Sequence record: OP595146.1
Source: Escherichia phage vB_EcoM_DE17
Length of the DNA: 64,000 nucleotides
Direction: 5' to 3' (one strand)
The position numbers and the translations under genes are program-made. Below the pieces are notes generated by a model, which ran no database searches, was not told the origin of the DNA, and worked only from the letters and a program-made list of their open reading frames with translations. Shown one piece after another: positions 25,221-63,865 of this stretch. Numbering within the stretch: the first letter of the stretch is position 1; each line of letters opens with the position of its first letter.

Positions 25221-25477
25221 GTAAGCCTCTTTTAAGTAACTATTAAGTTTTAATCTTTTATCTTAACGTATTCTATACGTTATACTTTAAAGCTTTTTAA
25301 AAGCTATTAAATAATCTTTTAAGAGTTTTAAAGTATCTGTATAGTTAAACTGTTAAGTAACCTTTTAAGTAAAAACCCACTTCGCAAAGATTAACACCTT
25401 GTCAAGTACATTGTCAACTTGCTTTTTATAATTTTTTGCAGTAATGTATGAGGTTAATGATTTTAGAGGGAGTAAAA
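25221..25477. promoter_or_regulatory. AT-rich divergent intergenic region between leftward early unit and rightward DNA polymerase unit
   Basis: About 255 bp non-coding; tandem cttgtcaa/attgtcaa boxes at 25399..25418; TATAAT at about 25424. Confidence 0.45.
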
Positions 25478-28177
25478 ATGGAAAACGTAGATTTTAAAAA
25501 CTTACATTTAGTTGGTGATACAGAAACTGATGGTTTACTCCTTGAGTTCACTAAAGTGCACGTAATGGCTTTCGCAGACTATAAATCTGACGATGAAGAG
25601 CCACCTGTATGGGTCTTTACAGATGAGCCTATCCTCGGTCACAAATACACCAAGTACATCAAGGGTGGTTTGCGTGAAGGTATTGAGTTTGCGTTAAAGG
25701 CAAAACGACTTTGCATCCATAATGGTCTGGGTTATGACTGGTGGGTATTCAATCACATTGCACCTGATTTGTGGAACTTTGATAATCCAAAGTGTAAACC
25801 GTGGAGTAATTTCTTTCAGGATTCTCTTATCCAATCTCGTGTTCAGTGGATGGATAGGCCAACTCCAAAAGGCTATAAAGGTGCTCATGGCTTGGCGGCA
25901 TGGGGTGCTCGTGTTGGTGTCCGTAAACCAGAGATTGAACATTGGGGTGTGTGGAATGCAGAAATCTTCACTCGTGTTGTAGAAGATATCCGTATTAACG
26001 CCAAAACTAAACGTGCACTGGATAATGAATACCTGAAGTTAAAGAAGTGTGGTATAGACACTTATGAAACCTATATGCGAGCTAAAGAAACATCTTTCTG
26101 GATGAGTCAACAAGCTATCAATGGTTGGAAAGCCGATAAAGAGCTTATGGAGTTCCATGTAAAGGAACTTGACAAGTTGACTAATGAGCTTGCTTCGGAA
26201 GTTGAACCACATCTTCCTCCAACTATTAAGACCAAAGGTAAAGTTACTGGGGAAGAGTTTGCAAAAGCTTGGAATGAGTATGTTGAAGCATTCGGTCATG
26301 CAGATGGACTGAAGAGAATTACCAAGTACCCTAAGACAAAGTATCGTCAACAGGTACGTAACGGTGAGATGCAGACATACGAAATCAAGCCATTTGGTAA
26401 GCCAACTACAAAGATTTTTAACATTGAAAAGAGAAATTGCTATACACCAACCAACTCTGTAACTGGTGAAGAGTACAAGGAAGGTTTTGTAGCAATGAAG
26501 GATGCTCGTGCAATTTGCAACGAGTTGAATGCAAAGATTGGTAAGAAATGCAAAGACTGGAAGCCAGTAAAAACAGTTAAAACTGTGAAGTACTATAACA
26601 GTCATGTTGTTAATCACTTTGAACTAGAGTCAAGTCGCTACACAGGATTGATTGATGCACCATATACACCAATTGAGTTTGAAGTTTCTCGTATGACTCA
26701 GGTAGCAGTTGTTAAAGACTACTTAAAATCAGTTGGTTGGATTCCAGATGACTGGAACTACAAGAAAGACTCAGATGGTCGCCCTGTCAAAGTTTGTCGT
26801 TTCAAAGACAACAAAAAGATGATTACAAAGCATCCTAAGTGGCAGGAGATGGTGGAACGGTGTGGGTTGAGCTATGTTGAACACGAAGGTGTCCAGTACA
26901 TTGAGCATAACTGGTCTGTGAAGAAATACACAGATTTACTTGAGCCTTGCTTAATCCGCACTTCACCAAAACTTACTGAATCTTCTTATGATACGATTGA
27001 AGGTGAGCTTGGACAGAAGATTGCTAAGTACTATACTTTGATGCACCGACGCAGAACCATTGAGAACTCAAAGGATGATGAAAAAGGTTGGCTAAACCAG
27101 ATTCGTCCTGATGGTCGCCTTAGTGCTGGTGCAATGGTATTTGGTACTTCAACTGGACGTATGACACAATATGGTATTGTAAACGTACCGTCTGGTGCTG
27201 CTGTCTATGGGGAACCAATGAGGGCAGTGTGGATTTGTGAAGAGGGTACTAACGTTGTCTCTGTAGACATGAACTCAGCCCAGCTAGTTCTCCTTTGTAA
27301 CTTTATGGGTGATAAAGACTTCACCAAAGCGGTAACGCAAGGTAAAGAAGAGATTGAGTTTATTCGTCAAGAAGATGGACGCTATTACTGCAAACACTTT
27401 GATGAGTACCTCAACCCAGAGATTGATAAGTACCTTCGCTATGACTCTGAGAATGACCTGTACGTTGTCTATTCAGGGACTGATGCACACACACTGAACA
27501 GTATTTACTTTAGCTTGAATGATGAGCAGGATATCTTGACTTGTCGAGCCACTCAGGATGAGAATCTTCTCCATGAGATTAGTAAGGGTCGTAAAAAAGC
27601 TAAGAATGGTATCTATGCACTACTGTTCGGTGCAGGTGATGAGAAGTTTGCTAAGACGATTAAAGCTGCAACTACTCAGGAAGGTGCACTGACTAAACAG
27701 ACTTACTTTATTCGTTTGCCTAAAATTAAGAAGCTGCTAGATGACTTGGAAGCTGACTACAAAGCGACTAAAAAGGCACTTGAAGAGGTGTTTGGTAAGA
27801 CTGCTGCAATCTCTAAAGGAGGATTTGTAAAGGTTGCTGGGGCTTGGTTGTGGTGTAAATCTCCACACAAACTGTTGAACTATCTTTTGATGGGTTCAGA
27901 GGCTCAGATTCAAAATGAGGCAATTAACCTTGCTTGTCGTCGTATGATTGACGAAGGTTTGATGAAGTTGAATGGTCGTCAACCAGCTATTGGTGCTCGT
28001 TTGCTCTGCGCATATCACGATGAAACAAGCTGGGAATGTCCAGAAAGTATGACGGCAGAAGTGAAAGCAGTTACTGACTGGTATTATGGACAAGCTTCTA
28101 AGAACTTAGGTCTTAAGAAAGAAACACTTGTAACAGGTACTGGTAAGGTTGGTAAAAGCTGGCTTGAAGTGCACTAA
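25478..28177 (+). CDS. family A DNA polymerase
   Basis: Exo motif VGDTETDGL, O-helix-like RKKAKNGIYALLFGAG, motif C YHDE; start set to ATG at 25478 after GAGGGAG. Confidence 0.85.
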   Translation: MENVDFKNLHLVGDTETDGLLLEFTKVHVMAFADYKSDDEEPPVWVFTDEPILGHKYTKYIKGGLREGIEFALKAKRLCIHNGLGYDWWVFNHIAPDLWNFDNPKCKPWSNFFQDSLIQSRVQWMDRPTPKGYKGAHGLAAWGARVGVRKPEIEHWGVWNAEIFTRVVEDIRINAKTKRALDNEYLKLKKCGIDTYETYMRAKETSFWMSQQAINGWKADKELMEFHVKELDKLTNELASEVEPHLPPTIKTKGKVTGEEFAKAWNEYVEAFGHADGLKRITKYPKTKYRQQVRNGEMQTYEIKPFGKPTTKIFNIEKRNCYTPTNSVTGEEYKEGFVAMKDARAICNELNAKIGKKCKDWKPVKTVKTVKYYNSHVVNHFELESSRYTGLIDAPYTPIEFEVSRMTQVAVVKDYLKSVGWIPDDWNYKKDSDGRPVKVCRFKDNKKMITKHPKWQEMVERCGLSYVEHEGVQYIEHNWSVKKYTDLLEPCLIRTSPKLTESSYDTIEGELGQKIAKYYTLMHRRRTIENSKDDEKGWLNQIRPDGRLSAGAMVFGTSTGRMTQYGIVNVPSGAAVYGEPMRAVWICEEGTNVVSVDMNSAQLVLLCNFMGDKDFTKAVTQGKEEIEFIRQEDGRYYCKHFDEYLNPEIDKYLRYDSENDLYVVYSGTDAHTLNSIYFSLNDEQDILTCRATQDENLLHEISKGRKKAKNGIYALLFGAGDEKFAKTIKAATTQEGALTKQTYFIRLPKIKKLLDDLEADYKATKKALEEVFGKTAAISKGGFVKVAGAWLWCKSPHKLLNYLLMGSEAQIQNEAINLACRRMIDEGLMKLNGRQPAIGARLLCAYHDETSWECPESMTAEVKAVTDWYYGQASKNLGLKKETLVTGTGKVGKSWLEVH

Positions 28178-28238: not shown

Positions 28239-28457
28239 ATGACACTTTCAGAGATTGAAGTTCAGTTGCAATGTGCTGGTTACTCTCAAAAAGAGATTGA
28301 AGGGATGTTTATCGTTCTTTGCAGTAGCTGTAGGAATTTGAAGGTAAACCCTGAAGTTCTACGTAGAGTCGATATCTTTATTGCTGGAGGCAAAATCGCA
28401 AAAGACAAGACAGGCTACTTAAAAGGTGAGCGTGTAAACATTGAGAGCTTATTATGA
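28239..28457 (+). CDS. hypothetical protein (paralogue of 28660..28872)
   Basis: 72 aa; C-terminus IFIAGGKIAKDKTGYLKGERVNIESL is near-identical to the neighbouring paralogue. Confidence 0.5.
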   Translation: MTLSEIEVQLQCAGYSQKEIEGMFIVLCSSCRNLKVNPEVLRRVDIFIAGGKIAKDKTGYLKGERVNIESLL

Positions 28458-28663
28458 GCCACCGTGGAAGAACCCATGCAGCGATGATGAAAGGTGCTTC
28501 AAAGGAGACTATCAAGAATCGTAAGCAGAAGTTGTTTGAGAGAATGAACAGGTTAATTGACAATTCATCTCTTTCAGGTTCTGAGAAAGTTTTCTTGAAA
28601 GGTAATCTGAAAAGCATTGCACAAGAACTTATTGACATTGAATATTGGAGACACCAAAAATGA
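28454..28663 (+). CDS. hypothetical basic protein
   Basis: 69-aa ORF between the two paralogues. Confidence 0.45.
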   Translation: MSHRGRTHAAMMKGASKETIKNRKQKLFERMNRLIDNSSLSGSEKVFLKGNLKSIAQELIDIEYWRHQK

Positions 28664-28872
28664 CACTTGCAGATGTTATCCAGCAACTTCACGACAATTG
28701 CTATACTCCAGAGTTGATTCAGGAAATGCTTATTGTAGTGATGCCTAGCAAGTTCGTAAAAGGTTTTAATCGTGACTCCTTAATGTCTGCGCATATCATT
28801 ATCGTTGACGGTAAGATTGCAAGGGACCGTACAGGAGTCCTTAAGGGTGAACGTATTAGTATTGACCTCTGA
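28660..28872 (+). CDS. hypothetical protein (paralogue of 28239..28457)
   Basis: C-terminus IIIVDGKIARDRTGVLKGERISIDL; start at ATG 28660 after GGAGA. Confidence 0.5.
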   Translation: MTLADVIQQLHDNCYTPELIQEMLIVVMPSKFVKGFNRDSLMSAHIIIVDGKIARDRTGVLKGERISIDL

Positions 28873-28891: not shown

Positions 28892-29047
28892 ATGAAACGC
28901 AAAGTAAAATTATTTAGTTTATATGGAAGAGTCGGTAAAGGTTTTGATTGGCAACTGCTACGTTCAGATGTTAAAAGCAATGAATTAGCACAGCTTATTA
29001 TAAACTATCGACGAACGTACAGAGAGGTAGAACATCGTGAACAGTAG
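28892..29047 (+). CDS. hypothetical small protein
   Basis: 51 aa from ATG 28892 (MKRKVKLFSLYGRVGKGFDWQ) with G-rich RBS. Confidence 0.35.
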   Translation: MKRKVKLFSLYGRVGKGFDWQLLRSDVKSNELAQLIINYRRTYREVEHREQ

Positions 29048-29060
29048 TAGGAGAAGTATT

Positions 29061-29297
29061 ATGTGGAAAGCAGTAATTGTGTTTGGTGTTATCTTTCTGT
29101 CTGGCTGTAACCCATCTTACGAGGACAAAAACGCTTCTTATAGCCTCCCACCAGAGATGCAAGATTGCAAAGTCTATAAGTTAAATGGGGATGCAATAAG
29201 CACAGATATTGTTGTTGTCAGATGTCCAAACTCTCAAACGACAACATCTTATAGATATGGTAAAAATAGCCAATCACACACTACGGTTATTGAGTGA
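29061..29297 (+). CDS. small lipoprotein
   Basis: MWKAVIVFGVIFLSGC: hydrophobic signal plus lipobox LSGC; AGGAGA RBS upstream. Confidence 0.5.
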   Translation: MWKAVIVFGVIFLSGCNPSYEDKNASYSLPPEMQDCKVYKLNGDAISTDIVVVRCPNSQTTTSYRYGKNSQSHTTVIE

Positions 29298-29307
29298 GGT
29301 TTTTACG

Positions 29308-29514
29308 ATGCAGGTCTTAATAAACTATATCTACTGTTATGATGTTGTTCACTCCACTACAACGGTAGCTCAACGTAACCCAATCGTCCCACGAGAGGGT
29401 GAGTTGGTTAGAATCGAGGGTTGGACTTACACTGTGGAAAGCATCATTCATAAGTTTGATGTTGCTGGTGATGTTCAAGTTATTGACGTAGAGATTGGTG
29501 GTAAGAGAAAATGA
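29308..29514 (+). CDS. hypothetical protein
   Basis: 68 aa from ATG 29308. Confidence 0.4.
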   Translation: MQVLINYIYCYDVVHSTTTVAQRNPIVPREGELVRIEGWTYTVESIIHKFDVAGDVQVIDVEIGGKRK

Positions 29515-29714
29515 CTGTAGAAGATAAATTTAAGAACGCAGTTCTTACAGAAGATGGTGAGCTTGAAACATTCATTCTTCGTGTTGATGGTAAGCTATTC
29601 CGGTGTCGTTGTGGGTCAAACTGTTTTCACAAACCTGATAACACAAAGTTAGACATATACGAGTGTAATAACTGTGGGGTAAGGTTCTTAGGTAAGATTA
29701 AGGATATGCAATGA
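29511..29714 (+). CDS. zinc-ribbon protein (paralogue of 30039..30230)
   Basis: FRCRCGSNCFHKPD...YECNNCG Cys4 pattern shared with paralogue. Confidence 0.5.
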   Translation: MTVEDKFKNAVLTEDGELETFILRVDGKLFRCRCGSNCFHKPDNTKLDIYECNNCGVRFLGKIKDMQ

Positions 29715-30038: not shown

Positions 30039-30230
30039 ATGAACAAAGAAGATAAACATAAAAATGCTGTACGAACTCCTGATGGAAAGGTTCAATCCTT
30101 CATCCTTACAGTTGGTGGAAAGCCATTTCGTTGCCACTGCGGAGCAAACTGTTTTCATAAACCAGATAAAAATGACTTAGAGCTTTACGCATGTAATGCT
30201 TGCAATACTTGGTATCACTCAGAGGAATAA
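30039..30230 (+). CDS. zinc-ribbon protein (paralogue of 29511..29714)
   Basis: FRCHCGANCFHKPD...YACNACN; same N-terminal KHKNAV pattern. Confidence 0.5.
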   Translation: MNKEDKHKNAVRTPDGKVQSFILTVGGKPFRCHCGANCFHKPDKNDLELYACNACNTWYHSEE

Positions 30231-30231
30231 A

Positions 30232-31335
30232 ATGACAATTCTGTACAAACAAAATAAAGATAACTCTTTTAACGTCTGGTCATGCGTTGCTGTAGGTGAC
30301 AAAGTTATTACAACCTACGGTAAAGAAAATGGCAAGATGATGTTTGAAGAGTATACAGCAGAACCTAAAAACATCGGTAAAAAGAACGAGCGTAACGCTG
30401 AACAGCAAGCTCTCTTTGAAGTCGCTGCTAAGTATAAAAAGCAAGTTGACCGCAAAGGTTATGCTTACACAAAAGAATCTGCACAGAATACTGAGAAGGT
30501 AGGTGTGCAGCTTGCTCATGATGCTGCAAAGGTTAGTCATGCAAAGTATCTGAAGTTCCCTGCTGATGCTCAACCGAAACTTGATGGTGTCCGTTGTAGG
30601 ATTTCAAGGCACTTAAGTATTGGCAGTGTATTCACAGCATACTCTCGTGAAAATACTGTTTACAAAATCCCTACTGAACTAATACCTGATATTATGGCAA
30701 TGTTAAGGCTCCACAAAGATGTTGATGAATTTGATGGAGAGATTTATGCTCATGGGTGGGACTTAGAAGATATTGTCTCTATGATTAAAAATGAAGACAA
30801 TCCTGACCGTCATCTACTTAAGTTTTACTGGTATGATATCTGTGACAGTACTAAGACGTGGCCTGAGCGTAGAGATATTATTGAGACTTCACCATTGAAT
30901 GACTTTAGAGACGGCTGTAAAGTTGTTCCTGTTAAGTCTCGTCGTGTAAATTCTTGGGAAGAGTTTGATGAAGCTCATGATAAGTGGGTTGAAGCTAAGT
31001 TTGAAGGTGCAATGTACCGTTCAATCTCTGAAGACTCCTTCTATGAGTGCTGTCACCGTTCATACTTCTTGATTAAGCACAAGAAGATGCACACTGAAGA
31101 GTTTAAAGTGACTGGTGTAAAGACTGATAAGCGTGGTCATGGCAAGTTCGTTGTAGAGACTCTTCCTAACGTCTTTGTAGATGTCTCATGGAAGACTACT
31201 CATGAGAAGAAACAGTATCTTGCTGAGCATCCTGAAGAGTTTATTGGGAAGCCTTTAACGGTTCAGTTCCAGAAGATGACTCGTAAGGGTTCTTTACAGT
31301 TCCCTGTTGGGCTAGTTATCAGGGATTACGAATAA
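30232..31335 (+). CDS. ATP-dependent DNA ligase
   Basis: Adenylation motif I KLDGVR; size typical of small phage ligases; start at ATG 30232. Confidence 0.75.
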   Translation: MTILYKQNKDNSFNVWSCVAVGDKVITTYGKENGKMMFEEYTAEPKNIGKKNERNAEQQALFEVAAKYKKQVDRKGYAYTKESAQNTEKVGVQLAHDAAKVSHAKYLKFPADAQPKLDGVRCRISRHLSIGSVFTAYSRENTVYKIPTELIPDIMAMLRLHKDVDEFDGEIYAHGWDLEDIVSMIKNEDNPDRHLLKFYWYDICDSTKTWPERRDIIETSPLNDFRDGCKVVPVKSRRVNSWEEFDEAHDKWVEAKFEGAMYRSISEDSFYECCHRSYFLIKHKKMHTEEFKVTGVKTDKRGHGKFVVETLPNVFVDVSWKTTHEKKQYLAEHPEEFIGKPLTVQFQKMTRKGSLQFPVGLVIRDYE

Positions 31336-31616: not shown

Positions 31617-32000
31617 ATGAAAAAGATTTTATTAGCTGCTGCAATGGTTATGTCAATGAATTTACCAGTCAATGCAACAGAACTCCCAAATGTGGACTTA
31701 TCAGGTGTTCCAGAAGACACTTGTCAGATTGTTAAAGGTGTTGCTTTGACTAATGGTGAGTTACTTAAACCAATCTCTGAAGAGTCTTTAACAGAGATGA
31801 CTGATAAGGTAACTGACTATCAGTATCGTGTTCTTGCAGAGTATTTCCTGCAATCTGCAAATATTAAAGAGAAGCACCCTGATGATATTGATGTACAGGC
31901 TATGCTCAATCATCGTATTCAGTTTAAAGAAGATTTGATGCAAAAAGCTATGTATGGTGTTGAGTATTTCTTAGAAAACAGAAGCTGCACAGGTATTTGA
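31617..32000 (+). CDS. secreted/periplasmic protein with cleavable signal peptide
   Basis: MKKILLAAAMVMSMNLPVNA then TE: classic Sec signal; two Cys in mature part; preceded by strong promoters. Confidence 0.55.
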   Translation: MKKILLAAAMVMSMNLPVNATELPNVDLSGVPEDTCQIVKGVALTNGELLKPISEESLTEMTDKVTDYQYRVLAEYFLQSANIKEKHPDDIDVQAMLNHRIQFKEDLMQKAMYGVEYFLENRSCTGI

Positions 32001-59078: not shown

Positions 59079-59153
59079 TGGAGAATCCGAAGGGACTCGA
59101 ACCCTTATAAACCTGTTTTGCAGACAGGCACATATCCATTTCTGTCACGGATT
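59079..59153 (-). tRNA. tRNA-Cys (anticodon GCA)
   Basis: Hand-folded: acceptor gaatccg/cggattc, T-arm AAGGG-TTCGAGT-CCCTT, loop CTGCAAA, CCA encoded. Confidence 0.7.
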
Positions 59154-59157
59154 CAAA

Positions 59158-59250
59158 TTGGAGGAAGATACCAGACTTGAACTGGTACACCGATTTCTCA
59201 GCTACTGGCAGTTTAGCAAACTGCTCCCTTACCTTTTAGGGTTAATCTTC
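59158..59250 (-). tRNA. tRNA-Ser (anticodon GCT), class II
   Basis: 93 nt; anticodon stem GCAGT/ACTGC, loop TTGCTAA, long variable arm, T-arm ACCAG-TTCAAGT-CTGGT. Confidence 0.65.
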
Positions 59251-59252
59251 CA

Positions 59253-59987
59253 TTATTTCTGTAATGCGTTCTTCATTTCTGGTGTTGCAATAGTGTCAAT
59301 TACACCAGTTTTACAAGCATCATCAAACCAGTCTGGTAAGATACCTGCTAAGAACCCATTGATATTCGTTTTAAGGTACTCTGCAATAAGGGCAGCTTCT
59401 TCTTCAATCATCTGCACAACTTCATCTGCATAAGCTGTAATCTTTGAGATACCTTCATTAATCTTACTAACAGCTTGGTTAGCTAAATCAGAAATAGTAT
59501 CAAGACCTTTATCAATAGCATCCTGTAAGTCACTTAATACATCATTAACACCGTCTAGTGCACTGTTAATCGTATCCATAGCTTTTTGACCATACTCTGT
59601 AGCAACACCCATAATACCACTAAATGGTGTACAGCCAACTTGTTCACCTGCTGCACCCATAACATTAGAATAGCCTTTTGCTACCTGCATACGTGAGGAA
59701 AACTCATCAATGGACTTTTGACCATAATCTGTCAGTGTCTTAGTAGTTGATGTAGTGCTTGTCAGACTCGTTGTAAAGCTGTTAAGCAGAACTGTTGTAA
59801 GTCCAGCAGCAACAAGTTTATCTTTTATTGTAGGGTCTGTTACAGAGCTAATAGAGCTTACAAGTGATGTAGAGGCAGCTACGGTTCCACCGAGAACTGC
59901 TGCACCAGTAATAAGGGGATTAGAAAACCCTCTACCGGTTTTTAAGAGATTAAAAATCTCCTTACCTTGTTCTGTCATCTCTTTCAT
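59253..59987 (-). CDS. hypothetical Ser/Thr-rich protein embedded in tRNA cluster
   Basis: About 244 aa; start set to ATG at 59987 (MKEMTEQ) so it does not overlap the tRNA at 60004..60080; ends 3 nt before tRNA-Ser. Confidence 0.45.
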   Translation of the reverse strand: MKEMTEQGKEIFNLLKTGRGFSNPLITGAAVLGGTVAASTSLVSSISSVTDPTIKDKLVAAGLTTVLLNSFTTSLTSTTSTTKTLTDYGQKSIDEFSSRMQVAKGYSNVMGAAGEQVGCTPFSGIMGVATEYGQKAMDTINSALDGVNDVLSDLQDAIDKGLDTISDLANQAVSKINEGISKITAYADEVVQMIEEEAALIAEYLKTNINGFLAGILPDWFDDACKTGVIDTIATPEMKNALQK

Positions 59988-60003
59988 TAAGCACCTTTGG
60001 AAT

Positions 60004-60080
60004 TGGTAGTCCAGTGGGATTTGAACCCTCTTCTCATGTTTTTCAGACACGCGCTTTAACCATATAAGCTACTTGGACTA
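60004..60080 (-). tRNA. tRNA-Phe (anticodon GAA)
   Basis: T-loop TTCAAAT, anticodon loop CTGAAAA; one T-stem mismatch in hand fold. Confidence 0.6.
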
Positions 60081-60085
60081 TAAAT

Positions 60086-60161
60086 TGGGGTGACCTACGG
60101 GATTTGAACCCGTATAGACCATGTTCACAGCATGGGTCATTACCATTTATGATAAGGCCAC
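60086..60161 (-). tRNA. tRNA-His (anticodon GTG)
   Basis: Anticodon stem CCATG/CATGG, loop CTGTGAA; T-arm ACGGG-TTCAAAT-CCCGT. Confidence 0.65.
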
Positions 60162-60192
60162 ATTTAAGGACTCTCGTAAGAACCCTTAGAAG

Positions 60193-60268
60193 TGGCAGCG
60201 GCATAAGGATTTGAACCTTAATAAGACAGCTTCAGAGACTGCTGCATTGCCAGTTATGCTATACCGCT
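60193..60268 (-). tRNA. tRNA, probably Gln (anticodon CTG)
   Basis: T-arm TAAGG-TTCAAAT-CCTTA; anticodon loop CTCTGAA on a stem with two G-U pairs. Confidence 0.5.
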
Positions 60269-60273
60269 AAATT

Positions 60274-60352
60274 TGGTACTCCATATCGGATTCGAACCGA
60301 TACATAACACAGATTTTAAGTCTGGCCTCTCTGCCAATTGGAGTAATGGAGC
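60274..60352 (-). tRNA. tRNA, isotype uncertain (loop suggests anticodon TAA)
   Basis: T-arm ATCGG-TTCGAAT-CCGAT, CCA encoded; loop CTTAAAA; short variable arm is atypical for Leu. Confidence 0.5.
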
Positions 60353-60354
60353 AT

Positions 60355-60429
60355 TGGCGGGGGATGTTGGAATTGAACCAACTTCTTCGATTTCAAAGAC
60401 CGAGGTTTTAACCTTGTAAACTAATCCCC
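60355..60429 (-). tRNA. tRNA-Gln (anticodon TTG)
   Basis: T-arm GTTGG-TTCAATT-CCAAC, loop CTTTGAA; 1-72 mismatch in hand fold. Confidence 0.55.
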
Positions 60430-60438
60430 TTTAAATCT

Positions 60439-60996
60439 TTACTTTCTCAGTGGATGAATAAAGAATGCCAACATAACTCTTTCCCTTGAGAATGCTCTTT
60501 CTTCTGGGACAACACTTTTTAGCTTCCATCCAACATAAATTCTCCAGTAGAATTGTTTACCAAAGACTTTAATTGATGGGATAAAAGCGAATAATCCCCA
60601 AGCATTACTGTTCCACATTAGGAGATAACCTGTCTGATTATCTTCAGGGTTAGAACTTACGTTGATATTACCTTTCCACTTAGTAACATCTTTTACATCT
60701 CTTCCTAATACATGGTAAGAGAAGTTATAAGCTTTGTTTCTCCAGAGCCAACCAACTCTCTGCATATAGACACCAAGCTTGCCAATCTTTCTAATCTTAG
60801 CCCATCGTTCGACATGCCCTTTATCACCATCAATTGGGTTGTCATATGTCTCCATCCATCTGAAGCCGAAAGGTAAGTGTCCTTTCTTCTCACTGTAAAA
60901 TGGAACTACAAAAGGTGCTAAGATAACTGCTAAGATTGCTGCAAATGGTTCTAACAAAGCTAAGAAAATCCATGAAGCATACTTCAAATATCTCAT
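60439..60996 (-). CDS. membrane protein embedded in tRNA cluster
   Basis: 185 aa; N-terminal hydrophobic helix ASWIFLALLEPFAAILAVILAPFVV; flanked by tRNAs. Confidence 0.5.
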   Translation of the reverse strand: MRYLKYASWIFLALLEPFAAILAVILAPFVVPFYSEKKGHLPFGFRWMETYDNPIDGDKGHVERWAKIRKIGKLGVYMQRVGWLWRNKAYNFSYHVLGRDVKDVTKWKGNINVSSNPEDNQTGYLLMWNSNAWGLFAFIPSIKVFGKQFYWRIYVGWKLKSVVPEERAFSRERVMLAFFIHPLRK

Positions 60997-61015
60997 CTAA
61001 ATAGCCTCTTTAAAT

Positions 61016-61091
61016 TGGCGCAGGATAAGGGATTCGAACCCCTATTAACAGCTTCGTAGACTGTTGCTCTATCCATTTGAACTAATCCTGC
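61016..61091 (-). tRNA. tRNA-Arg (anticodon ACG)
   Basis: Acceptor gcaggat/atcctgc, T-arm GGGG-TTCGAAT-CCCTT, loop CTACGAA. Confidence 0.7.
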
Positions 61092-61204
61092 TTACCTACA
61101 AGAACACCATACAGTTTTTCACAAGAGTTGTTTTTACGCCTGTTTTTGAATGACGCTATAAACTTTTTTGCAATTGACTTATTACTCATAGTGTTCTCCT
61201 AAAA

Positions 61205-61283
61205 TTGGTGTTCCAAGACGGATTCGAACCGTCACTAGTACAAGGTTTGAGCTTGCATCCTCTGCCAATTGGGATACTGGAAC
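61205..61283 (-). tRNA. tRNA, isotype uncertain (loop suggests anticodon CAA)
   Basis: T-arm GACGG-TTCGAAT-CCGTC; D-stem ATCC/GGAT; loop CTCAAAC; short variable arm. Confidence 0.5.
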
Positions 61284-61284
61284 A

Positions 61285-61359
61285 TGGTACTCACTAAAGG
61301 ACTTGAACCTTTTTCTTCATCTTGTAAGGGTGATGTTTTACCATATAAACTAAGCGAGT
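61285..61359 (-). tRNA. tRNA, possibly Val (anticodon TAC)
   Basis: T-arm AAAGG-TTCAAGT-CCTTT; loop CTTACAA with one stem mismatch. Confidence 0.5.
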
Positions 61360-61455
61360 ATGAAAGAGGTCTGAAGTTGTGCCGCTAACTCAACTCCGTG
61401 GGATTTGTTACGGTCTTCAGTTGACTCAAAGCGGTCTTTCACTTGACCTCTAAAT

Positions 61456-61531
61456 TGGTGCTCCCACAAGGATTCGAACCCTGATAAGTTGCTTACAAGG
61501 CAACCGTAATAGCCAATTATACGATAGGAGC
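61456..61531 (-). tRNA. tRNA-Thr (anticodon TGT)
   Basis: Perfect anticodon stem GTTGC/GCAAC, loop CTTGTAA. Confidence 0.7.
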
Positions 61532-61538
61532 ATTAATT

Positions 61539-61613
61539 TGGAGCATCCAGAGGGAATCGAACCCTCAACATCAGTTTGGAAGACTGTAATTTTCCCGTTT
61601 AAACTATGGATGC
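61539..61613 (-). tRNA. tRNA-Gly (anticodon TCC)
   Basis: T-arm GAGGG-TTCGATT-CCCTC, loop CTTCCAA. Confidence 0.65.
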
Positions 61614-61619
61614 ACTAAT

Positions 61620-61695
61620 TGGTGGAGTCACTGAGAATTGAACTCAGTTCCCAAGTTTGCAAAACTCGAATTTTAACCATATAAACTATGACCCC
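61620..61695 (-). tRNA. tRNA-Ala (anticodon TGC)
   Basis: Acceptor GGGGTCA with G3-U70 pair typical of tRNA-Ala; loop TTTGCAA. Confidence 0.7.
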
Positions 61696-61701
61696 ATTGT
61701 T

Positions 61702-61777
61702 TGGTACAGGTGGAGGGAATTGAACCCATCGTCTTACTGATTAAGAGTCAGCCGCATAACCATTTTGCTACACCTGC
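61702..61777 (-). tRNA. tRNA-Lys (anticodon CTT)
   Basis: Loop CTCTTAA on stem GCTGA/TCAGT; T-loop TTCAATT. Confidence 0.6.
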
Positions 61778-61784
61778 ATTAATT

Positions 61785-61862
61785 TGGTAGGAGACAAGGG
61801 ATTCGAACCCTCAAACACCAACTTCTAAGGATGGTAGGTTTACCAATTACCGTCAATCTCCC
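61785..61862 (-). tRNA. tRNA, isotype uncertain (loop suggests anticodon TAG)
   Basis: T-arm GAGGG-TTCGAAT-CCCTT, CCA encoded; loop CTTAGAA; D-arm fold ambiguous. Confidence 0.5.
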
Positions 61863-62116
61863 ATTAAATCTTTTTAGAGAACTTCTAAGAACCTAAGCAA
61901 CAAGGTTCCACAACAAGCTGTAATAACCTTAGAAGCCCTCTAAAAAGACCTAAATTGGTCTTTGCATAGTCTTGTTTAATCCGGTGACTAGAACCTTTGG
62001 AGAGCTTGATATTATCTCTTCTCCGTGACACCTACTAGGTGCTTTATCAGTGTGTACGACAATACACGAGGGATACCAAAGCAACATCCGAATGAAGCTT
62101 GGCTTTAAATCTTATT

Positions 62117-62207
62117 AGGCGGTAAGTAAAGGAGTCGAACCCTCACCGTATCTCTACAGTGGCAACTGTTTTCAAGACAGTTTGGCTACCATTAGCCGCT
62201 ACCTACC
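62117..62207 (-). tRNA. tRNA-Ser (anticodon TGA), class II
   Basis: 91 nt; perfect anticodon stem ACTGT/ACAGT, loop CTTGAAA, long variable arm; 3' CCA not encoded. Confidence 0.7.
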
Positions 62208-62220
62208 CCTAATAAGACTT

Positions 62221-62303
62221 TGGCATGGGACGGAGGAGTTGAACCCCTTTGAAACGGTTTTGGAGGCCGTTGCTCATGCCTTAGAGTCTTAACATCGTCC
62301 CAC
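62221..62303 (-). tRNA. tRNA-like gene, isotype uncertain (possibly Trp, anticodon CCA)
   Basis: T-loop TTCAACT and paired acceptor ends; 83 nt; internal fold ambiguous; candidate loop CTCCAAA. Confidence 0.45.
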
Positions 62304-62445
62304 ACTATAATTCGAAGCTTACCGTATTTTCGCAACACTGTAAAGCCCCTTCTCAGATTATTTACATGTTCTGGAAAACATGAGATACAGACCACCTCCT
62401 TACACGGAGACCCGATAAGGTCGTCTAAGCAATCTGCTAACTATT

Positions 62446-62522
62446 TGGCACACCCTACAGGATTCGAACCTGTAACTAACGATTTAGAAGACCGTTGCTC
62501 TATCCAATTGAACTAAGGGTGC
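62446..62522 (-). tRNA. tRNA-Arg (anticodon TCT)
   Basis: T-arm ACAGG-TTCGAAT-CCTGT, loop CTTCTAA; D-arm near-identical to tRNA-Arg(ACG). Confidence 0.7.
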
Positions 62523-62814
62523 ATTAATCTTTAAAGACTCTCTTAGAAAGCCCTTAAAGATGCCCACCTTATTAATCATACCGTGGGCGAGTACGCCAAA
62601 TTCTTTGATGAGGGATTGGAAGACCTCACTGGTGTTTAGCCTATCAAGCTACTGCCAGAAAAACATTGTCGTTTGCATTTATTTTAAGTTTGCAAAATAG
62701 ACGCTACGCAACGAAAACTATTCAGAATATGTACAACAAATTTCCCCACATTGTGTTACGTCTAACACTCATGTATTGGTGTTTGAATTATACATATTAT
62801 GAAGTATTTTAGTT

Positions 62815-62843
62815 ACTATAAAGTGGTCACACCTCAATGTCAA
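62815..62843 (-). promoter_or_regulatory. sigma70-like promoter inside tRNA cluster
   Basis: Minus strand TTGACA-N17-TATAGT in an AT-rich spacer between tRNA-Ile and the tRNA-free region 62523..62810. Confidence 0.45.
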
Positions 62844-62858
62844 CAACTTTATTGAAAT

Positions 62859-62934
62859 TGGTACTGGTAGGTGGAATCGAACCACCGATGTTCCCTTATC
62901 AGGGGAGTGTTATAACCTTCTTAACTATACCAGC
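62859..62934 (-). tRNA. tRNA-Ile (anticodon GAT)
   Basis: T-arm GGTGG-TTCGATT-CCACC, loop CTGATAA. Confidence 0.65.
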
Positions 62935-62935
62935 T

Positions 62936-63012
62936 TGGAGGTTCAGATGGGAATCGAACCCACATTCATAGGGCTTATGAAACCCCTGCATTACCTTATC
63001 TGCGACTGAACC
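62936..63012 (-). tRNA. tRNA-Met (anticodon CAT)
   Basis: Loop TTCATAA on stem GGGGT/GCCCT; T-arm GTGGG-TTCGATT-CCCAT. Confidence 0.65.
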
Positions 63013-63016
63013 ATAT

Positions 63017-63092
63017 TGGTAGAAGTGGAGGGATTCGAACCCATCGCCTGTCAGATTAAAAGTCTGCCGCATCACCATTCTGCTACACTTCC
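63017..63092 (-). tRNA. tRNA-Lys (anticodon TTT)
   Basis: Loop CTTTTAA; acceptor and T-arm similar to the tRNA-Lys(CTT) copy. Confidence 0.65.
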
Positions 63093-63236
63093 ATTAAATC
63101 ATCTTTGTAGATAAGCTACCCAGACTTGCTTAAGGTCTGTAGCGATGTGCATTGTTGGGTTTAAATCTAGAATTTACCCTTTCACCCTTTGTGGTCGCAT
63201 ACTCACAGGTAAGCTTAATAGCTCACCTACAAAGAT

Positions 63237-63380
63237 AATTACCAGACCGTTGTTTATCATCTTAAGTGCTACCATTACACCAACTCGACATCTGCCGAGT
63301 GAAGGAATCGAACCTTCGCCTTTTCTTTACCGGAGAAATAGATTGTTTAAGTTTTGCTGTAAACGGTCTTCTGTAAATTT
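63237..63380. repeat. repeat copy 1 (attaccagaccgt ... ttttgctgtaaacggtcttctgtaaattt) carrying a tRNA-like T-arm insert
   Basis: Terminal motifs shared with copy 2; the two ends can pair (agaccgt / acggtct); about 95 nt between them includes gccgagt-GAAGG-aatcgaa-CCTTC with no matching 5' acceptor. Confidence 0.5.
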
Positions 63381-63546
63381 GTTGAGCCAGACCAAGTTTA
63401 AATTTTTCAAAATTAAATTGGCTTGAAATTTTAAGTAACTTGCTGAATTTGGTCTTCTGCTCCTTTAAAGAATACTCGTAAGAACTCTTTAAGGGAGGGG
63501 CTAAATAGCCCTCTCAAAACATCATCTTGAAATACTTATTATAATT

Positions 63547-63624
63547 TGGCGGTTACGAAGGGATTTGAACCCTCATCATCTCCCGTGACAGGGGAGTATT
63601 TTAACCAGATTAAACTACATAACC
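63547..63624 (-). tRNA. tRNA-Asp (anticodon GTC)
   Basis: Perfect anticodon stem CTCCC/GGGAG, loop CTGTCAC; T-arm GAGGG-TTCAAAT-CCCTT. Confidence 0.75.
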
Positions 63625-63630
63625 TTTATT

Positions 63631-63718
63631 TGGTGTGCCGTGTAGGAGTCGAACCTACCGAGTCTCAATGACAAGGGATTTACAGTCCCCACCGCTACCA
63701 TCTACGGGATAACGACAC
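63631..63718 (-). tRNA. tRNA-Tyr (anticodon GTA), class II
   Basis: 88 nt; loop CTGTAAA; long variable arm; T-arm GTAGG-TTCGACT-CCTAC. Confidence 0.7.
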
Positions 63719-63788
63719 ATTTATTATTCTATTCAGGCTAAGGACTTGCACCTTACAAATCGGTGAGCAATCGCTTCTCTCCTAAATT

Positions 63789-63865
63789 TGGCGGTTAGTC
63801 AGGGATTCGAACCCTGTGCCATTCGCTTAACAGGCGACCGCACATACCTTATGTGCTTCCTAACC
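63789..63865 (-). tRNA. tRNA-Asn (anticodon GTT)
   Basis: D-stem GCAC/GTGC, loop CTGTTAA, T-arm CAGGG-TTCGAAT-CCCTG. Confidence 0.65.

Follow-up and report, generated by a model that had tools for sequence, protein, structure and literature searches.

A small lipoprotein from the polymerase–ligase interval of Felix O1-like phages: a member of the phrog_902/DUF4884 family and a candidate receptor-independent factor of the periplasm

The window, by which we mean the whole 64-kb stretch of DNA analysed here, comes from a Felixounavirus. The 3 kb around the gene described below match 258 phage records at 80–99% identity, nearly all of them from Felix O1-like myoviruses that infect Escherichia, Salmonella, Shigella and Citrobacter. 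The gene (Table 1) is flanked by those for DNA polymerase (25448–28177) and DNA ligase (30196–31335) within one block of genes on the same strand, and its product has the same sequence as WAX24961.1 of Escherichia phage vB_EcoM_DE17, which is annotated as a hypothetical protein. A ribosome-binding site has been annotated in the same position as the Shine-Dalgarno sequence listed in Table 1 for the orthologue from Citrobacter phage Mijalis. A GTG located further upstream, at 29037, would add eight residues and leave the lipoprotein signal valid; the close orthologues begin at MWK and not at this upstream start.

Table 1. Position of the lipoprotein gene and of its predicted functional elements within the window
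Feature	Position	Strand	Basis and remarks
Lipoprotein gene	29061..29297	+	ORF list; ATG start, 78 aa, TGA stop
Shine-Dalgarno sequence AGGAG	29049..29053	+	Read from the sequence; 7 nt 5' of the ATG
Signal peptide, residues 1–15	29061..29105	+	n-region MWK, hydrophobic core AVIVFGVIF, lipobox L13-S14-G15
Cys16, predicted lipid-modified residue 1 of the mature protein	29106..29108	+	Column without variation across the 109 aligned sequences
63-aa mature domain with a putative small all-beta fold	29106..29294	+	AlphaFold2 on the mature-domain alignment; dN/dS 0.05–0.10
Cys36, invariant; putative disulfide partner of Cys55	29166..29168	+	Alignments A2 and A3
Signature V52-V-R-C55-P-N-S-Q-T-T-T62 with invariant Cys55-Pro56	29214..29246	+	Invariant or near-invariant V52, V53, R54, C55, P56, S58, T60
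Gly67-Lys68, near-invariant turn	29259..29264	+	Family alignment; extra flanking Cys pair (CGKxC) in some members

The original prediction had credited the 78-aa product with a textbook lipoprotein signal ending in the lipobox LSGC, and this part of it stands. The N-terminus, MWKAVIVFGVIFLSGC, parses as MWK-AVIVFGVIF-LSG-C16. We applied a PROSITE-type rule that asks for a lysine within the first seven residues, an uncharged core and a lipobox of the pattern [LVI][ASTVI][GAS]C with the cysteine at a permitted position (15–35), and all of these elements are present: a lysine in the n-region, an uncharged core, L-S-G-C and Cys16. When every start/ORF combination of at least 40 aa in the six frames of the whole window was put to the same rule, five out of 1,256 passed. 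Two of these are alternative starts of the ORF at 29061–29297, while the other three are implausible, with TTG or GTG starts and, in two cases, an antisense orientation. A relaxed scan of the 64-kb window for lipoprotein signals likewise returned no second credible lipoprotein gene. The lipobox is kept across the homologues, 115 out of 120 of which pass the strict rule; the five that fail it retain L-x-G-C, the cause being either a mis-called start or a cysteine within the hydrophobic core. By these sequence criteria, 29061–29297 is a genuine small lipoprotein gene, the signal peptide of which is predicted to be cleaved at LSG/C, and Cys16 of the product would carry the lipid.

The protein belongs to a family that is already catalogued, uncharacterised, large and represented in multiple lineages, and that is without a recognisable fold. 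The full-length sequence matches phrog_902 with an E value of 9e-16, the mature domain alone still does so with 1.7e-10, and the same profile is matched by all members of our family set (109/109). Precomputed tables give PF16225 (DUF4884) for nearly all homologues without marking the assignment as weak, whereas a local hmmscan against Pfam-A returned PF16225 for none of the 109 members. Neither phrog_902 nor PF16225 (DUF4884) has an assigned function, so that membership as such yields no mechanism, and no member with a characterised function came up in searches of the literature. When 1.84 billion representative proteins were searched with the family profile, 1,243 clusters were retrieved with the limit set to E ≤ 1e-3 and 692 with it tightened to 1e-10. 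Across all family matches listed, the length varies between 71 and 154 aa. A check of the longest members for domain fusions showed nothing beyond C-terminal extensions that are of low complexity or made up of short repeats or helical segments. Two matches to other families were discarded: that of a single homologue to the TrbK entry-exclusion lipoprotein (E 0.03) involves the N-terminus only and lies below the cut-off, and that to the InsA zinc ribbon is judged spurious, with 17.5 bits as compared to a cut-off of 26.1. NCBIfam gave no match.

Within the alignment of 109 sequences, Cys16, Cys36, Cys55 and Pro56 are invariant, and P30, D35, V52, V53, R54, S58, T60, G67 and K68 are conserved in at least 90% of the members. 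The resulting signature of phrog_902 reads Y-x-L-P-x-x-L-x-D-C ... V-V-R-C-P-N-S-x-T-T-T ... G-K. As two invariant cysteines other than the lipid-bearing one in an exported protein suggest a disulfide, Cys36 and Cys55 are probably linked to each other. A subset of the family, P0016, P0069 and P0092 among them, has an additional pair of cysteines around the Gly-Lys turn (CGKxC), suggesting a second disulfide in these proteins. Two types of C-terminal additions recur that are both absent from the window protein, namely a helical element of the pattern SAL-x-KLT-x-E-E-x-K-x-LG(L/I) and at least one copy of a short hairpin-like unit, (V/I)-(D/N)-G-x-x-Y; members carrying these two additions are P0042, P0079, P0105, P0123 and P0168, and P0069, P0043, P0120, P0179 and P0183.

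AlphaFold2 predicts the mature domain to be a small all-beta protein, with strands at mature residues 5–7, 22–26, 35–39, 45–51 and 54–60. The confidence (pLDDT) rises from 62 to 67 when the mature domain is modelled instead of the precursor; the first 40 residues reach 72–81 and the C-terminal hairpin is poor. A Foldseek search of the PDB with this model of moderate confidence returned nothing at E ≤ 0.001, and the same type of search against viral models returned family members only, several of which are labelled 'Lipoprotein'. With the family profile as query and a limit of E ≤ 10, the sequences of the PDB yielded a single match, which is due to chance. Given a moderate model that matches no known fold, no binding partner can be inferred from the structure.

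Orthologues occupy the same position between polymerase and ligase genes in Felix O1 (ORF91/Felix01p170), VSe11, Mijalis and Sf14, and this synteny spans Felixounavirus and Mooglevirus. Since the block around the lipoprotein gene is tightly packed, with all genes on the same strand, and scans for promoters and terminators at the gene gave signal counts at chance level, the earlier placement of the gene among early genes amounts to a positional inference only. The neighbours in the sampled loci are small genes without functional annotation. Two paralogous pairs of such small genes flank the lipoprotein gene in the window (28239–28457 and 28645–28872; 29511–29714 and 30039–30230; all on the + strand); identity within the phrog_4230 pair is 41%, and within the phrog_5768 pair, which shows a zinc-ribbon-like CxC...CxxC pattern, it is 58%. 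In the same-strand block, 2.3 kb downstream, a 127-aa ORF (31617–32000, + strand) starts with an ordinary, non-lipoprotein signal peptide, MKKILLAAAMVMSMNLPVNA, and matches phrog_4332 (E 6e-66); its product is predicted to be a second exported protein of the module. An array of 23 tRNA genes lies at 59079–63865 on the − strand. The polymerase of the window is encoded by one intact 909-aa ORF with small genes directly after it. Relatives have genes for HNH or other endonucleases inside or just 3' of the polymerase gene (e.g., Salmonella virus VSe11, locus L026, 1–3344; Felix O1, L001, 3862–4365; REP8, L037, 425–958), and in VSe11 the polymerase gene is split. The interval between polymerase and ligase is a mosaic hotspot.

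A homologue is present in 581 phage records and the mature domain is under strong purifying selection, both of which mark the gene as real. The dN/dS range given in Table 1 refers to pairwise comparisons among Ounavirinae, synonymous sites being saturated in more distant pairs. The signal peptide evolves faster than the mature part and keeps its hydrophobic character. At the same time, the gene is accessory, because some natural Felixounaviruses do without it at this locus: the polymerase–ligase interval of REP8 and DE7 contains neither the lipoprotein gene nor the 51-aa ORF upstream of it, and an HMM derived from the family alignment had no match in the REP8 and DE7 loci while it found the gene in Felix O1 and VSe11. 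Both ORFs have been removed by one clean natural deletion (L037, REP8, 1434–1444; L038, DE7). An orthologue with at least 60% identity is present in about 197 records, as compared to about 250 records that match the interval.

Its accessory status argues against a core role of the gene in lysis, be it as the outer-membrane subunit of a spanin or as a periplasmic regulator of lysis timing, and we consider such a function very improbable. What could be cited for it is that the protein is a small predicted outer-membrane lipoprotein, that weak N-terminal matches to Rz-like spanin profiles exist and that in Felix O1-like phages the genes for lysis lie dispersed over the genome (PMC4319497). The spanin-profile matches are, however, limited to the signal peptide and are gone when mature domains are used. 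Neither of the flanking products, of 51 and 68 aa, contains a hydrophobic stretch, and thus an adjacent or overlapping inner-membrane spanin partner is lacking. The Mijalis orthologue, CPT_Mijalis039, is annotated as hypothetical, whereas the announcement of that genome describes an overlapping two-component spanin pair, and phages REP8 and DE7, from which the gene is naturally deleted at this locus, are viable and propagated, which speaks indirectly against a need for it in the last step of lysis. T4-like phages, some of which contain phrog_902 members, have spanins of their own. For phage Moogle, separate genes for inner- and outer-membrane spanins have been announced (PMC4319497).

The family is by no means restricted to relatives of Felix O1. 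By tblastn it was detected in about 570–580 phage records, and the lineages concerned comprise Ounavirinae, Vequintavirinae, Stephanstirmvirinae, Obolenskvirus, Asteriusvirus and other jumbo phages, and furthermore Straboviridae of Aeromonas, Acinetobacter and Pseudomonas, a 104-kb Acinetobacter phage and many 114-kb siphophages of Vibrio. The hosts thus include Escherichia, Vibrio, Aeromonas, Acinetobacter and others, and all family-bearing records sampled belong to phage groups that we take to be lytic. When 185,579 species genomes of bacteria and archaea were scanned with the VVRCPNSST motif variant and a second family pattern (narrower alignment A5), one locus was recovered, in Hylemonella gracilis, a count that applies to the commonest motif variant only. 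This copy, in strain ATCC 19624 (L009, 5968–6246), encodes a 92-aa lipoprotein and is part of an island next to a comM-like gene that is truncated. Close by are a regulator of the XRE type and two further ORFs, one of them endonuclease/phosphatase-like and the other large and ATPase-like. DUF4884 has also been reported for protein BT_3183 of Bacteroides thetaiotaomicron, and with DUF4884 in Bacteroides proteins the family is not strictly viral.

When ORFs were called and clustered for 24 loci including the window, there was no conserved neighbour, and only the lipoprotein recurred across lineages. The lack of a conserved partner gene in 24 contexts suggests that the lipoprotein acts alone. Individual loci deserve mention: in Acinetobacter phage vB_Aba_QH4 (Obolenskvirus), a gene annotated as 'immunity protein (imm)' is located three small genes downstream of the family member (L003, 4654–4866), and the annotation of the T1-like phage Henu8 lists a DUF4884 protein alongside Cor. 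For pSf-1, a relative of Henu8, no family homologue was found in the first 34 kb, which were scanned, and we base no argument on a co-occurrence with Cor.

In Enterobacterales, an aspartate at position +2 after the lipid-modified cysteine is the classical Lol-avoidance signal, that is, a signal for retention in the inner membrane, and its strength depends on the residue at +3. The proteins of the Ounavirinae, including that of the window, have an asparagine at +2 and are without the Lol-avoidance aspartate. All sampled phages of Enterobacterales and Aeromonas outside the Ounavirinae, on the other hand, have Asp+2 (alignment A6; L005, L031–L035, L002), with the sequences CDQ, CDA and CDN in Vequintavirinae, CDA in a Stephanstirmvirinae phage and in Asteriusvirus-type jumbo phages, CDG in jumbo phages of Yersinia and CDS in a T4-like phage of Aeromonas. 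In the family as a whole, Asp+2 occurs in 19 of 115 sequences. This pattern suggests that one and the same domain is anchored differently depending on the lineage, in the outer membrane where Asn is present at +2 and in the inner membrane where Asp is present. If the Asp+2 rule holds, the domain would work from either membrane, and a target in the periplasm or spanning the envelope would then be more likely than the side of an outer-membrane barrel that faces the periplasm.

Beyond the lipoprotein signal, the original prediction had proposed a role like that of T5 Llp, and this analogy is not supported, such that the earlier interpretation is supported in part. In lytic conversion of the Llp/Cor type, the lipoprotein would attach from the periplasmic side to the outer-membrane receptor used by its own phage and inactivate it, which would block superinfection and spare the progeny from loss on debris. 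The protein described here is of the same physical class as Llp (PDB 7qjf, 8a60), which is likewise a small, beta-rich lipoprotein with about 61–63 mature residues and two further cysteines and is likewise encoded by a strictly lytic phage; moreover, Asn+2 predicts outer-membrane sorting in Ounavirinae. Despite this resemblance, no similarity in sequence or fold to Llp or Cor was found. Llp was not among the matches when the complete set of PDB sequences was searched with the family profile at E ≤ 10, even though that set contains it (8a60_B, 7qjf_A), and hhalign against Llp gave a probability of 0.5%; homology is rejected on these grounds. The Foldseek search of the PDB, run with a model of pLDDT 62–67, did not return Llp either.

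The situation is similar for Cor, the superinfection exclusion protein of phages phi80, T1 and N15, which is also a small lipoprotein. Its profile, phrog_1119, is weakly matched by 34 of the 109 full-length members. In the members examined, the matches begin at residue 1 and span roughly residues 1–20 to 1–50, and none of 57 mature domains matches the Cor profile at E ≤ 0.1, so that the similarity is an artefact of signal peptide and lipobox and not a sign of homology. A lipoprotein that pSf-1, a T1-like phage, encodes at its tail locus was tried as a possible relative as well and is unrelated (hhalign, 0.5%).

Location and receptor use also differ. Known genes of the Cor/Llp type are found at the locus for the receptor-binding protein (PMC11990801; likewise the table for Henu8): the Llp gene adjoins the receptor-binding gene and Cor-type genes lie at the tail-fibre locus, whereas the phrog_902-type gene is situated elsewhere. 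Llp is directed against a barrel protein of the FhuA type, whereas Felixounavirus adsorption requires the core oligosaccharide of LPS (PMC13196588), an abundant glycolipid, and the authors of the BASEL study consider the masking of an abundant surface glycan in the course of a lytic infection to be likely futile (PMC11990801). In addition, one conserved domain is common to phages with different hosts and unrelated receptors, which is hard to reconcile with receptor-specific masking, and most homologues from enterobacterial phages have Asp+2, i.e. the sorting residue is variable. Taken together, we regard an Llp-type block of the phage's own receptor as improbable.

The function that we favour is that of a receptor-independent periplasmic factor that would keep superinfecting phages out once they have adsorbed, or would shield the envelope; this role is speculative, and we hold it as a possibility rather than a probability. 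The lipoprotein would be expressed from the block of replication genes and act in the periplasm irrespective of the receptor. A disulfide between Cys36 and Cys55 would hold a conserved polar patch made up of D35, R54, N57, S58, T60 and K68 in place as a binding surface. The target could be a common component of the Gram-negative envelope or of incoming phages, for example at the step of periplasmic tail penetration or DNA entry or at the cell wall, and as an outcome, secondary infection would be excluded post-adsorption or the infected cell would be protected from lysis from without. The spread of the family across phages irrespective of host and receptor speaks for such a role, as does its near-absence from bacterial genomes as judged by the commonest motif, and an anchoring signal that is not conserved (Asn+2 versus Asp+2) fits a target that can be reached from either membrane. 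Going one step further, and with somewhat greater reserve, we put forward that phrog_902/DUF4884 may constitute a new class of exclusion or envelope-protection lipoproteins that is independent of host and receptor, nearly confined to lytic phages, unrelated to Llp, Cor, Spackle and Imm, and able to work from either membrane.

The main rival of this favoured role is nearly as likely: the lipoprotein may serve counter-defence or takeover of the envelope, in that it binds and neutralises a conserved periplasmic or envelope component of the host and so aids infection by its own phage instead of excluding competitors. Candidate targets are a nuclease, a protease, a cell-wall hydrolase, a stress sensor or an envelope-associated anti-phage sensor. 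An accessory and conserved periplasmic phage protein fits this function equally well; the gene has been lost in some Felixounaviruses and is strongly conserved where present, it is spread over phages of many hosts, and it sits among small genes without assigned function in the presumed early block. The one bacterial copy found, with nuclease- and ATPase-like ORFs in an island next to a truncated comM, points in the same direction. Against it, searches with PADLOC defence models gave no match, and no target can be named. We know of no periplasmic anti-defence protein that resembles the phrog_902 lipoprotein. Overall, we judge counter-defence to be a doubtful though serious contender.

Small lipoproteins provide one of the few known routes by which a lytic phage remodels the envelope of its host. 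Those characterised so far, Llp and Cor, are each tied to one receptor, whereas phrog_902 is not tied to a receptor-binding gene. If the favoured role as a block to secondary infection or as a means of envelope protection is true, the mechanism would be general and not limited to a single receptor, and it would be relevant to competition between phages and also to the design of cocktails, since Felixounaviruses and rV5-like phages are common candidates for therapy. If the gene turns out to be dispensable without a phenotype, it would merely be another accessory gene. Natural Felixounaviruses with and without the gene are ready-made comparators for direct tests; because it can be tested in this way and because it is large, occurs in multiple lineages and has no recognisable fold, we consider the family to be of moderate interest.

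Among known systems, Spackle (Sp) and Imm of phage T4 and Ltp of Streptococcus phage TP-J34 offer themselves for comparison with the role favoured here. Spackle is a soluble, helical protein of the periplasm with an ordinary signal peptide, Imm is a protein of the inner membrane, and Ltp is a helical repeat protein. The family profile did not match Spackle in the PDB search at E ≤ 10, the entries searched presumably including the solved Spackle structures. Ltp is reported to be a lipoprotein anchored at the outer face of a membrane, and it stops the injection of DNA, not adsorption (PMC3952083). It is a candidate functional analogue of those phrog_902 variants that have Asp+2 and would reside in the inner membrane, with the difference that it stems from a temperate phage of a Gram-positive host and is expressed from the prophage. 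Homologues of Sp are confined to T4-like phages of enterobacteria, and the T4-like phages that carry phrog_902 are those of other hosts, namely Aeromonas, Acinetobacter and Pseudomonas; this is a weak hint, phylogenetically confounded, that Spackle and phrog_902 complement each other in T4-like phages. Spackle and Imm are early, accessory factors located in the envelope, as is presumed for the phrog_902 lipoprotein, and sp and imm are likewise embedded among replication genes. They act post-adsorption and irrespective of the identity of the receptor, and in their logic they, like Ltp, come closer to the role that we favour for the lipoprotein than T5 Llp does.
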